A stretch of DNA of 63,739 nucleotides, filler included, from Globobulimina sp. (lineage: Eukaryota), in assembly GCA_003354225.1 (NCBI GenBank). It is 52 parts of 52 records of this genome, joined end to end, with 100 filler letters (N's around TTAATTAATTAA, not from the genome) between each part and the next. Parts side by side here need not be neighbours in the genome. Positions count along the whole stretch, not along the records: positions 4,917 to 6,045 come from PIVH01022794.1; positions 6,146 to 7,274 come from PIVH01022795.1; 50 more parts are not named here. One strand, given 5' to 3'. Both the position numbers and the translations under genes were made by a program. The number at the start of each line of letters is the position of its first letter. Positions within the stretch are counted from its first letter, which is position 1. This document shows positions 4,817 through 6,580 of this stretch, piece by piece. The notes below the pieces were generated by a model that was not told the DNA's origin, ran no database searches, and was given only the letters and a program-made list of their open reading frames with translations.

Positions 4817-4917
4817 NNNNNNNNNNNNNNNNNNNNNNNNNNNNNNNNNNNNNNNNNNNNTTAATTAATTAANNNNNNNNNNNNNNNNNNNNNNNNNNNN
4901 NNNNNNNNNNNNNNNNT

Positions 4918-5172
4918 AAACGAAAACCAGCTAAAAAACAAGGAAAAAAACGAAAAACTAATCGAAAAGGGGGAAAAAGATCGAAAAAACGAGTTGGTGC
5001 AGGTAAAAAAAGCGTTAAAAAACGAAAAGCTGTTAAGAGTGTTAGAAAACCAAAATCTAAAGTTAAAAAGAGGGTAGGTGGTAAAAAAAGGTCATATAGA
5101 AAACGAAGTACTCCGATTTGTAAACTAACTAAAGCCCAACTCATAAAGAAAGTCAGAGCACTGAGTAGATAA
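4918..5172 (+). CDS. Highly basic Lys/Arg-rich protein, putative Polinton core/DNA-condensing protein, 5' partial
   Basis: Open frame KRKPAKKQGKKRKTNRKGGKRSKKRVGAGKK...KKVRALSR*, ending 8 nt before the MCP ATG. Confidence 0.65.
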   Translation, partial: KRKPAKKQGKKRKTNRKGGKRSKKRVGAGKKSVKKRKAVKSVRKPKSKVKKRVGGKKRSYRKRSTPICKLTKAQLIKKVRALSR

Positions 5173-5180
5173 AATATAAA

Positions 5181-6018
5181 ATGGCTCCTATCAAAAGAAG
5201 TAGAAAATCAAACAGTTTGACTCAACCTGTAACTGATGTTGCTAGTCTGGATGTGAGTTTGAGTTTTAACTAGTTTATTTATGTGTTGATTTACGTATTG
5301 TAATTATGTAAACACTTTGCGTATTGTAATCGTGTAAACACGTTGCGTATTGTAATTGTGTAAACACGTTGCGTATTGTAATTGTGTATAAATTTAGGTA
5401 TTTAATTTGAATCCAGTACAACTAAGTATCCTTAATGAAAAATGGGAATGGTATTTGCCTTTGACCCAGGTTCAAAATACGCAACAAAGTATAACCATCG
5501 CAGTACCTGCAAGTGGCAGTCAATGGACAGATTCTCAGCTTATGTTGGAAGTTGATTACAAAATATTCAATGGTGATGACACTGCATTGGCTCCCAATGT
5601 TGAGGTGGCTGTTGCTGAAAATATGGGTCATGTATGGATGTCAGATGTTGATATCAGCATCAATGGTGTTACCGTTAGTGGTCGAACTGGTGGTCTCTAT
5701 CCATACATAGCATACCTTAATTCTGTTTTTGAATTGGATACTGGTAAAAAAATACAATTGGATGCTTTGGAAATGTTATACCAAAGCAAAAACGGAAAAT
5801 TTGACTCGTTTTCAAACCAGAACCCTGCATTTAAAGTATAAATATGGTAATCTCATGTGTATACACTACACATATTGTTTATTTTCAGACACGTAGGGAC
5901 ATGGCTGCTCTGAGTAGCAGTGTATACACCTTGAATGTAATAAAATCGCCCATATGTCTGCAAGATAAACCATTGCCACCTAATATCCGTTTCGATATAG
6001 TTATTCGTCAAAAAAATG
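5181..6018 (+). CDS. Polinton/Maverick (adintovirus-like) major capsid protein, N-terminal part, spliced: exons 5181-5252, 5398-5835, 5889-about 6018
   Basis: The spliced product SLD|VFNLNPVQLSI...WEWYLP...GHVWMSDVDISING...YPYIAYL...NPAFK|TRR...ICLQDKPLPPNI matches the F54H12.2/PY MCP N-terminal motif order. Introns are GTGAGT...TTTAG and GTATAA...TTCAG. Confidence 0.82.
5294..5388. repeat. 26-bp minisatellite (about 3.6 copies) inside MCP intron 1
   Basis: Unit CGTATTGTAATTGTGTAAACACGTTG starts at 5294, 5320, 5346 and 5372. Confidence 0.92.
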
Positions 6019-6580
6019 GTATTATATAGGCTTAAAAGTAGAAAANNNNNNNNNNNNNNNNNNNNNNNNNNNNNNNNNNNNNNNNNNNNTTAATTAATTA
6101 ANNNNNNNNNNNNNNNNNNNNNNNNNNNNNNNNNNNNNNNNNNNNTTTCATCCAATGTGATGTATCCACATTACATAAAAAATAGAAAACCGCCACAATT
6201 TGCACATTATAAAAAGGATAAAATGGATAAAAAGGAGGTCGAGATTGTTGATAACGAGGAAGAGAAAAAAAGCGAGGATATATATGATGAGGGTGATGAA
6301 GAAAATAATAAAATCAGAGCGAATTGGTGTAAATTTGGTTTTATTCATCAACATTATAACCCAAAACCACTTGTTATTCCAACTAGAAAAGCTATTATTC
6401 CACAAAAAAAGTGAATAAAAGTTATATTAAATTTTTTGACTTGTTTATGAATGATATCACTAAGAAATCAATTTTGGTCATTGTGTTTGCGATGACTACA
6501 AAAAAATGAAATATTAAGTGAACTATGTATGTTTATATAACAGTCTTGTTTAATACCGTAACATGCACAGTCACGTAGCT

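Follow-up and report, generated by a model that had tools for sequence, protein, structure and literature searches.

We analysed a 63,739-base stretch of Globobulimina sp. DNA (hereafter the window; assembly GCA_003354225.1) and found on one of its contigs the first part of a gene for a Maverick/Polinton-type major capsid protein (MCP). The gene is interrupted twice by sequences with the appearance of spliceosomal introns, and is preceded at a distance of 8 nt by an open reading frame (ORF) rich in lysine and arginine. Mavericks with a double jelly-roll MCP are known; our analysis suggests as new an MCP core gene that is split by conserved introns. On balance we believe, with some reserve, that the contig stems from a long-resident lineage of Maverick/Polinton elements that is still under selection, and that it is not a wreck. 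The window consists of 52 separate contigs of 1127-1129 bp each, sorted by length and joined by linkers of 44 N + TTAATTAATTAA + 44 N. The capsid gene fragment (4918-6045) fills one whole contig (4917-6045, 1129 bp), and because the parts of the window are unrelated contigs, sequence outside 4917-6045 says nothing on linkage to it.

Structure of the capsid gene

The contig carries the following features, with the basis of each assignment in brackets.

4918..5172, plus strand: 3' part of an ORF rich in Lys and Arg that enters from the 5' contig end, 84 codons and a TAA stop (translation; lysine plus arginine fraction, K+R, 0.50)
5181..5252, plus strand: capsid exon 1, ATG plus 23 codons, a basic N-terminal arm ending in S-L-D (ATG 8 nt past the upstream stop)
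5253..5397, plus strand: putative intron 1, 145 nt, GTGAGT...TTTAG (the exon 2 frame differs from that of exon 1)
5294..5388, plus strand: tandem repeat within intron 1, 26-nt unit, 3.7 copies (repeat search)
5398..5835, plus strand: capsid exon 2, 146 codons, open, N-terminal part of the first jelly roll (family search and profile)
5836..5888, plus strand: putative intron 2, 53 nt, GTATAA...TTTTCAG (profile continuous over the junction)
5889..6018, plus strand: capsid exon 3, 43 codons plus one base if the donor at 6019 is used (profile match)
6019..6045, plus strand: GTATTA, where a third intron may begin; if it does not, the frame ends at TAG 6027-6029 (contig ends at 6045)

These positions agree with the original prediction, which had been made from the sequence alone: its coordinates for the ATG (5181), the introns (5253-5397 and 5836-5888) and the TAG at 6027 were all correct on re-reading, as was a Lys/Arg-rich ORF stopping 8 nt before the capsid ATG (stop 5170-5172, ATG 5181). 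The intron lengths of 145 and 53 nt are both indivisible by 3. Both interruptions thus shift the reading frame, so that only their removal can join the exon pieces. The last three bases of intron 1 are an in-frame TAG directly before exon 2, and no ATG precedes residue ~48 in the exon 2 frame. A reassigned stop codon, as in a ciliate-type code, was considered in place of introns and excluded, because both interruptions (145 and 53 nt) change the frame. The contig holds the first ~215 codons of the capsid gene; the full-length proteins of relatives have ~435 aa. GC content is 0.377 in the exons (0.30 at third codon positions, GC3), 0.29 and 0.26 in the two introns, and 0.33 in all window contigs together.

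The 26-nt repeat unit of intron 1 has three matches in the window, all within 5294-5388. In sequencing run X1, its depth was 18.6 compared to ~3 in the flanks, and its loose ends joined other sequence. The raised depth and these joins mark it as a dispersed repeat family of this genome. The repeat may have created intron 1 or may have expanded inside it.

Identity of the capsid protein

We compared exon 2 with 1.84 billion representative proteins using phmmer and obtained 101 matches at E<=1e-3, four at <=1e-10 and two at <=1e-30. Full-length relatives have 432-445 aa, and exon 2 corresponds to their residues ~19-157, which leaves space for an N-terminal arm of the size of exon 1. A family alignment and profile (A1) was made from 32 of the longer exon 2 matches. 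The closest full-length relative, P0007, is 34% identical to exon 2 and was folded with AlphaFold2 (AF2), giving a model with a predicted local distance difference test score (pLDDT) of 87.9 and a predicted template modelling score (pTM) of 0.87. Foldseek comparison of this model with the PDB placed the MCPs of Sputnik, PBCV-1 and mavirus on top (E 5e-16 to 7e-15), together with iridovirus and faustovirus MCPs; over all of these, E ranged from 5e-16 to ~4e-12 and the TM score from 0.54 to 0.68. The top matches in BFVD were an uncharacterised protein of Cotesia sesamiae bracovirus (E 2e-23, 21% identity), adomavirus LO7, proteins of adintoviruses and MELD viruses, and capsid proteins of many giant viruses. 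A Maverick insertion is present in bracoviruses. By its predicted fold, the exon 2 family is a double jelly-roll MCP. The contig covers about the first third of the MCP, and exon 2 folded alone gave a pLDDT of 78.3 and few paired strands.

Direct searches of Pfam, PHROGs and PDB sequences with exon 2, exon 3 and the basic ORF returned nothing meaningful (best Peptidase_M57, E 0.011, below cut-off), and a PDB profile search with alignment A1 returned 0 matches. None of 738 candidates was a longer homologous protein. No relatives were found in IMG/VR scans with P0002 and P0011 or in a metagenome scan with P0008.

When P0011, an exon 2 match with E 1.5e-9, was used to scan metagenomes, 438 relatives were obtained, and 80 loci were kept. 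In all full-length matches of these loci, the capsid gene was a single uninterrupted tblastn segment. Five long loci yielded 63 ORFs of >=110 aa, and we performed a Pfam scan on 33 of them, from L001, L005, L008 and L064, leaving out L023 and ORFs that overlap others in antisense. A pPolB domain (PF03175) was detected in three of the four scanned loci, a 772-aa ORF of L008 being without a match. An rve integrase with a chromodomain and an ATPase of poxvirus-A32/adenovirus-IVa2 type were present in all four. The gene order was integrase, an ORF of ~250 aa, an ORF of ~130 aa, MCP and a small ORF. The vertebrate Maverick module is integrase, minor capsid, PW, major capsid and protease, as described in PMC8097293. 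Exon 2 matched 66 of 68 tested locus MCPs at E<=10, with a best E of 5e-16 in that small set. Collectively, these results support the assignment of the contig gene as a Polinton/Maverick-type MCP, homologous to the MCPs of elements bearing pPolB and rve, as judged by sequence similarity. The MCP claim of the original prediction is thus upheld by the relatives of exon 2, the double jelly-roll model, and loci with pPolB, rve and the ATPase.

Downstream of the capsid module in L005, at L005:11412-11990, lies an ORF with BIR and RING domains (inhibitor-of-apoptosis-like; PF00653, E 1.5e-20), which is probably a cargo gene.

Evidence for introns in the capsid gene

To join the exon translations, we placed an X between them, and the joined sequence matched the A1 profile as one domain of 160 bits over positions 18-204. 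Exon 2 alone scored 132 bits (positions 18-161) and exon 3 alone 18 bits (E 3e-7, positions 163-204). Profile positions 162 and 163 lie directly on either side of the intron-2 junction, where the joining X is the sole insertion. A profile search of the spliced protein had been proposed as a check, and its outcome was a single 160-bit domain that runs unbroken over the intron-2 junction, exon 1 itself not being significant. At the first junction, joining S-L-D of exon 1 to V-F of exon 2 restores the ELDLF-type motif of the family. Exon 1 also has positional support, as its ATG at 5181 lies right behind the upstream ORF, like the MCP start in relatives.

The ORF boundaries of relatives fall at the same places. 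P0126, P0127 and P0129 are 72% identical to exon 2 and lie on different contigs of 1.7-6.1 kb. Their ORFs have 152 codons, that is 146 + 6; compared at the protein level, these ORFs begin with the first exon 2 codon and end six codons beyond the last. The P0004 ORF also starts at the first codon of exon 2, and P0005 (54% identical) passes through the same 3' boundary. At the end of exon 2, P0126, P0127, P0129 and P0005 read G-F-K and then V (GTN, like a GT donor), with a stop soon after. From this we infer a GT and an AG at the ORF boundaries of P0126/P0127/P0129, P0004 and P0005. P0131 and P0009 were also considered as evidence for intron 1 and were not counted, as their L-Q-L-F may just be the family motif. 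P0015 (37-38% identical) reads straight through the intron-2 position, and intron 2 is therefore not universal in the family. Together, these observations support the view that the two interruptions behave as precise introns of GT-AG spliceosomal type, and the intron positions appear to be conserved in relatives 54-72% identical. The two GT-AG introns of the original prediction are thereby sustained, by homology that runs over the junctions and by ORF boundaries conserved in relatives.

The 3' end of the contig may hold the start of a further intron. Relatives extend ~230 residues past the end of the exon 3 homology (profile position 204), and the frame at the end of exon 3 closes nine bases after that homology ends (TAG 6027). 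The GT at 6019-6020 is the only one between the last family-conserved residues and this TAG. If the gene is alive, a third intron from 6019 is probably the simplest reading. A contig of run X1 reaches 48 nt beyond 6045.

Probable selection on the coding sequence

Variants of the capsid gene were compared using three runs, which are DNA contigs of one sample, maybe the window's own source, aligned at 80% likeness. Over the 140 positions 5437-5576, one sample contig shows 28 differences from the capsid gene, and a second passes into a variant sequence around 5712-5739. The 24 listed differences comprise one in intron 1 and 23 in exon 2. By codon position, the latter fall 18 times on the third, four times on the first and once on the second position (P 1.3e-5 compared to an expected one third), and among the differences listed, 18 of the 22 changed codons are synonymous. 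Such a third-position bias is not expected from sequencing errors. The 213 exon codons contain no stop or frameshift; the other frames there close within 71 codons. The bias towards synonymous differences and the 213 stop-free exon codons make decay unlikely and suggest that the coding sequence is kept under purifying selection. The alternative named in the original prediction, a decayed element with insertions, is accordingly disfavoured, 18 of 22 changed codons being synonymous against a second copy.

The upstream ORF and the PW position

The slot directly upstream of the MCP is named PW in vertebrate Mavericks, and PW is a gene to which PMC8097293, in its accessible part, assigns no function. 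We surveyed this slot in 70 of the 80 related loci, omitting ten in which the match was partial or the start too near the start of the locus; two more with <450 nt upstream were dropped, leaving 68. In 65 of these, an ORF with a median length of 134 aa abuts the MCP start, with a median gap of -1 nt. Median K+R in the PW-slot ORFs is 0.22 for the whole ORF and 0.33 over the final 40 residues, and the tails in L001 and L003 are long and very basic (K+R 0.57 and 0.47). The basic ORF of the contig has the same position and is even more basic. It fills the PW slot by position and by basic composition. What the contig holds of it is the tail only, and a counterpart of the PW N-terminal domain would fall beyond the contig end. 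The idea that a small basic gene accompanies the MCP is thus borne out as to position, this being a conserved slot in 65 of 68 related loci. The conserved position and basic tail of this ORF offer a handle on the uncharacterised PW gene.

The PW-slot proteins (L001-L079, e.g. L008:9618-9998) have a conserved N-terminal domain with a Gly-rich Q-R-G-H-G-L-G-S and an L-G-G motif, and an Arg/Lys-rich tail. The L-G-G motif is reminiscent of cleavage sites of the adenovirus protease. Searching the PDB with a profile of the PW alignment (A3) gave one chance match (E 2), and a Pfam scan of 16 PW-slot ORFs gave scattered single matches only.

Interpretation and alternatives

We propose that the contig represents the junction of two structural genes of an endogenous Maverick/Polinton in an AT-rich eukaryote. 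The MCP gene would have gained no fewer than two introns of spliceosomal type, one of 145 and one of 53 nt; a further one at 6019 is probable. These introns would be old, with positions that predate divergence to 54-72% protein identity, since the positions are common to relatives that are only 54-72% identical. The gene pair would be transcribed in the nucleus, and the host would splice the capsid message at least twice; the product would be an MCP of ~435 aa that assembles into trimeric double jelly-roll capsomers. Because the MCP gene carries introns, the capsid protein would be made only after nuclear transcription and host splicing. The long basic tail of the upstream protein may, judging by its composition, bind or condense the DNA of the element. 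With only 8 nt between the genes, there is no room for an MCP promoter of its own. The MCP might be expressed by co-transcription and re-initiation, from a promoter inside the upstream gene, or by splicing from an upstream leader. Splicing may serve, as in adenoviruses, to express a promoterless gene that begins 8 nt past a stop.

Beyond these data, we infer that the transcripts are indeed spliced, that a third intron exists, that the basic protein condenses DNA or serves in the core, and that particles are still produced. The fullest version of the proposal is a Maverick lineage with ancient capsid introns (before ~54% identity) that still makes capsid and core proteins, and particles that need the host spliceosome. 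This version is possible, though we offer it tentatively and with considerable doubt.

Several observations weigh against the reading of a long-resident lineage still under selection. Splicing is read from the sequence, and the three runs listed for the stretch, none of them RNA and none showing joints, are DNA contigs of one sample. Exon 1 alone was not significant against the family profile, and the leading 'M' of the relatives may be a true ATG and not an alternative start, in which case such relatives might have no exon 1. The gene is incomplete, and its frame stops at 6027 if there is no third intron, so that it may be a truncated dead gene. The variants come from two Logan contigs of low depth (2.6 and 4.65) in one sample, and could be alleles, paralogues or from another organism. 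The related loci stem from one query protein and, many being near-identical, are not independent. In the four scanned loci, an adenain-type (adenovirus) protease match occurred in L064 only, at E 0.0066, below the Pfam cut-off. As for the upstream gene, a profile of 28 PW-slot ORFs did not match the basic ORF (score -7.5), the C-terminus of which is without the D-I-F-S/A ending of PW-slot proteins.

One alternative is a domesticated locus, in which a Maverick-derived MCP, maybe along with the basic gene, has turned into a host gene of ordinary structure that serves the host and not the making of element particles. Conserved intron positions and purifying selection are expected of a host gene, the exon GC3 of 0.30 is near the overall GC of the window contigs (0.33), and published accounts describe intact Mavericks as having no introns in their core genes (PMC8097293 and 10.1101/2022.07.12.499685). 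However, the 8-nt spacing is the compact viral PW-MCP layout of 65 of the 68 loci, into which no separate promoter fits. The same sample holds at least one further diverged copy, and the 72%-identical cluster comprises four different members on four contigs, which also speaks against domestication. We regard this alternative as unlikely, if deserving of attention.

A decaying Maverick remnant, whose insertions have GT and AG ends by chance and whose gene is truly cut short by the stop at 6027, appears improbable. The frame does close at 6027, the tandem repeat of intron 1 recurs elsewhere in the genome as an insertion would, and 96% of vertebrate Maverick loci are degraded (PMC8097293). Nevertheless, the 213 exon codons free of stops and frameshifts, the junctions that are codon-exact against the profile and shared as boundaries with relatives 54-72% identical, and the 18 of 22 changed codons that are synonymous between copies all argue against decay. 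Finally, an adintovirus-like virus that belongs to the sampled organism or to a passenger of it, exists free of the genome and is spliced by the host as adenoviruses are, would suit a 1.1-kb contig with no host flank seen and the adintovirus and MELD-virus proteins among the BFVD matches, but is highly improbable given a composition like that of the other contigs, an intron-1 repeat that recurs in other sequence of the same run, and an X1 depth of ~3, which is genome-like (Logan depth being a poor measure).

If the reading of a long-resident, still selected Maverick lineage is true, some Maverick lineages stay in the nucleus long enough to acquire host-type introns, and their expression requires splicing. 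ORF-based, intron-blind surveys would then miss or fragment a whole lineage. The clade of the contig capsid appears in protein collections as pieces of 71-158 aa. Surveys use prokaryote-style ORF calling because Maverick/Polinton core genes are held to be intronless; endogenous viruses have been described as intron-free, and prokaryotic gene callers were used for this reason (PMC10120064; similarly PMC9356565).

Other sequences in the window

A second Maverick MCP fragment lies at 36848-37444 on the plus strand of the window, on the contig 36846-37972. A single unbroken frame spans its ~198 C-terminal codons. The fragment matches L008 and P0028 by tblastn (E 3e-39); its match to PF21738 (double jelly-roll-like) is weak (E 0.014, below cut-off). 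When the other 51 contigs were searched with Maverick proteins by tblastn, the only match was this MCP fragment, at 36848-37441. We considered the contig 36846-37972 as the 3' half of the same capsid gene, comparing the similarity profiles of the fragment and of exon 2 over 101 full-length relatives. This was rejected, as the Spearman correlation was -0.22, compared to 0.41 to 0.84 in eight of eight same-gene controls. As the two similarity profiles do not run in parallel, the fragment belongs to another lineage. Downstream of it, in place of a protease gene, there is a spacer rich in AT, together with an ORF that starts like a signal peptide and has no Pfam match.

Per-contig GC in the window spans 0.26-0.48, and more than one organism may therefore be present. 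An ORF at 154-336 on the minus strand has a start like that of histone H4 before diverging from the canonical H4 sequence, and may be a variant or a pseudogene. An Rfam scan of the window found no family.

Comparison with known systems

The structural counterparts of the P0007 model are the capsid proteins of Sputnik (3j26), mavirus (6g43-45) and PBCV-1 (Vp54, 5tip), which share its double jelly-roll fold (TM score 0.56-0.68, E ~1e-15). They differ in sequence, with 9-12% identity, and are encoded in free virus genomes. Adintoviruses and MELD viruses (Starrett et al. 2021, PMC8502044) are likewise animal-associated and Polinton-like and have an adenovirus-like capsid module, and their BFVD models match the P0007 fold. 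In contrast to the present gene, no MCP-internal splicing was found for them in the accessible part of that paper, where the mention of an 'intron' concerns similarity to a group II intron maturase. For our gene, there is no sign of an exogenous genome.

Intron-type sequences have been described in related elements. In cryptophyte polinton-like viruses (PLVs), group I introns lie in a small gene upstream of the MCP (PMC12220804). Dinoflagellates have Maverick-Polinton-like proviruses with introners in them (Gozashti & Corbett-Detig, 10.1101/2025.03.18.643946), and these proviruses resemble the present case in that intron-type sequences lie in Maverick-like elements that keep capsid genes. A further likeness is that intron 1 here holds a repeat that recurs elsewhere in the genome. 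The dinoflagellate introners are recognisable, transposon-derived, found in protists and mostly judged young, whereas here relatives with 54-72% identity have the intron positions in common, and no family of introners was identified. Unlike the dinoflagellate proviruses, the loci of the contig gene's relatives have an animal-type module. In the full-text literature searched, which covers subscription papers partly, there was no report of conserved spliceosomal introns within the coding sequence of a Maverick MCP.

Vertebrate Mavericks (Barreat & Katzourakis 2021, PMC8097293) share the module order of the related loci, the small ORF upstream of the MCP and a double jelly-roll MCP of ~435 aa. 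The ORFs of intact vertebrate elements are described as intronless, which is said to agree with Kapitonov & Jurka 2006, whereas two and probably three MCP introns are predicted here, in an element known from 1.1 kb, too short a length to show pPolB, integrase and terminal inverted repeats. The original prediction had stated that Polinton MCP genes are typically single-exon, and PMC8097293, 10.1101/2022.07.12.499685 and PMC10120064 agree with this for core genes. Nematode Mavericks (Widen et al., 10.1101/2022.07.12.499685) have an MCP, a minor capsid protein, a protease, an ATPase, pPolB and an integrase, and their MCP has likewise been modelled as a double jelly roll. Their core genes are intronless and their introns lie only in cargo genes, whereas the introns proposed here interrupt a core structural gene.

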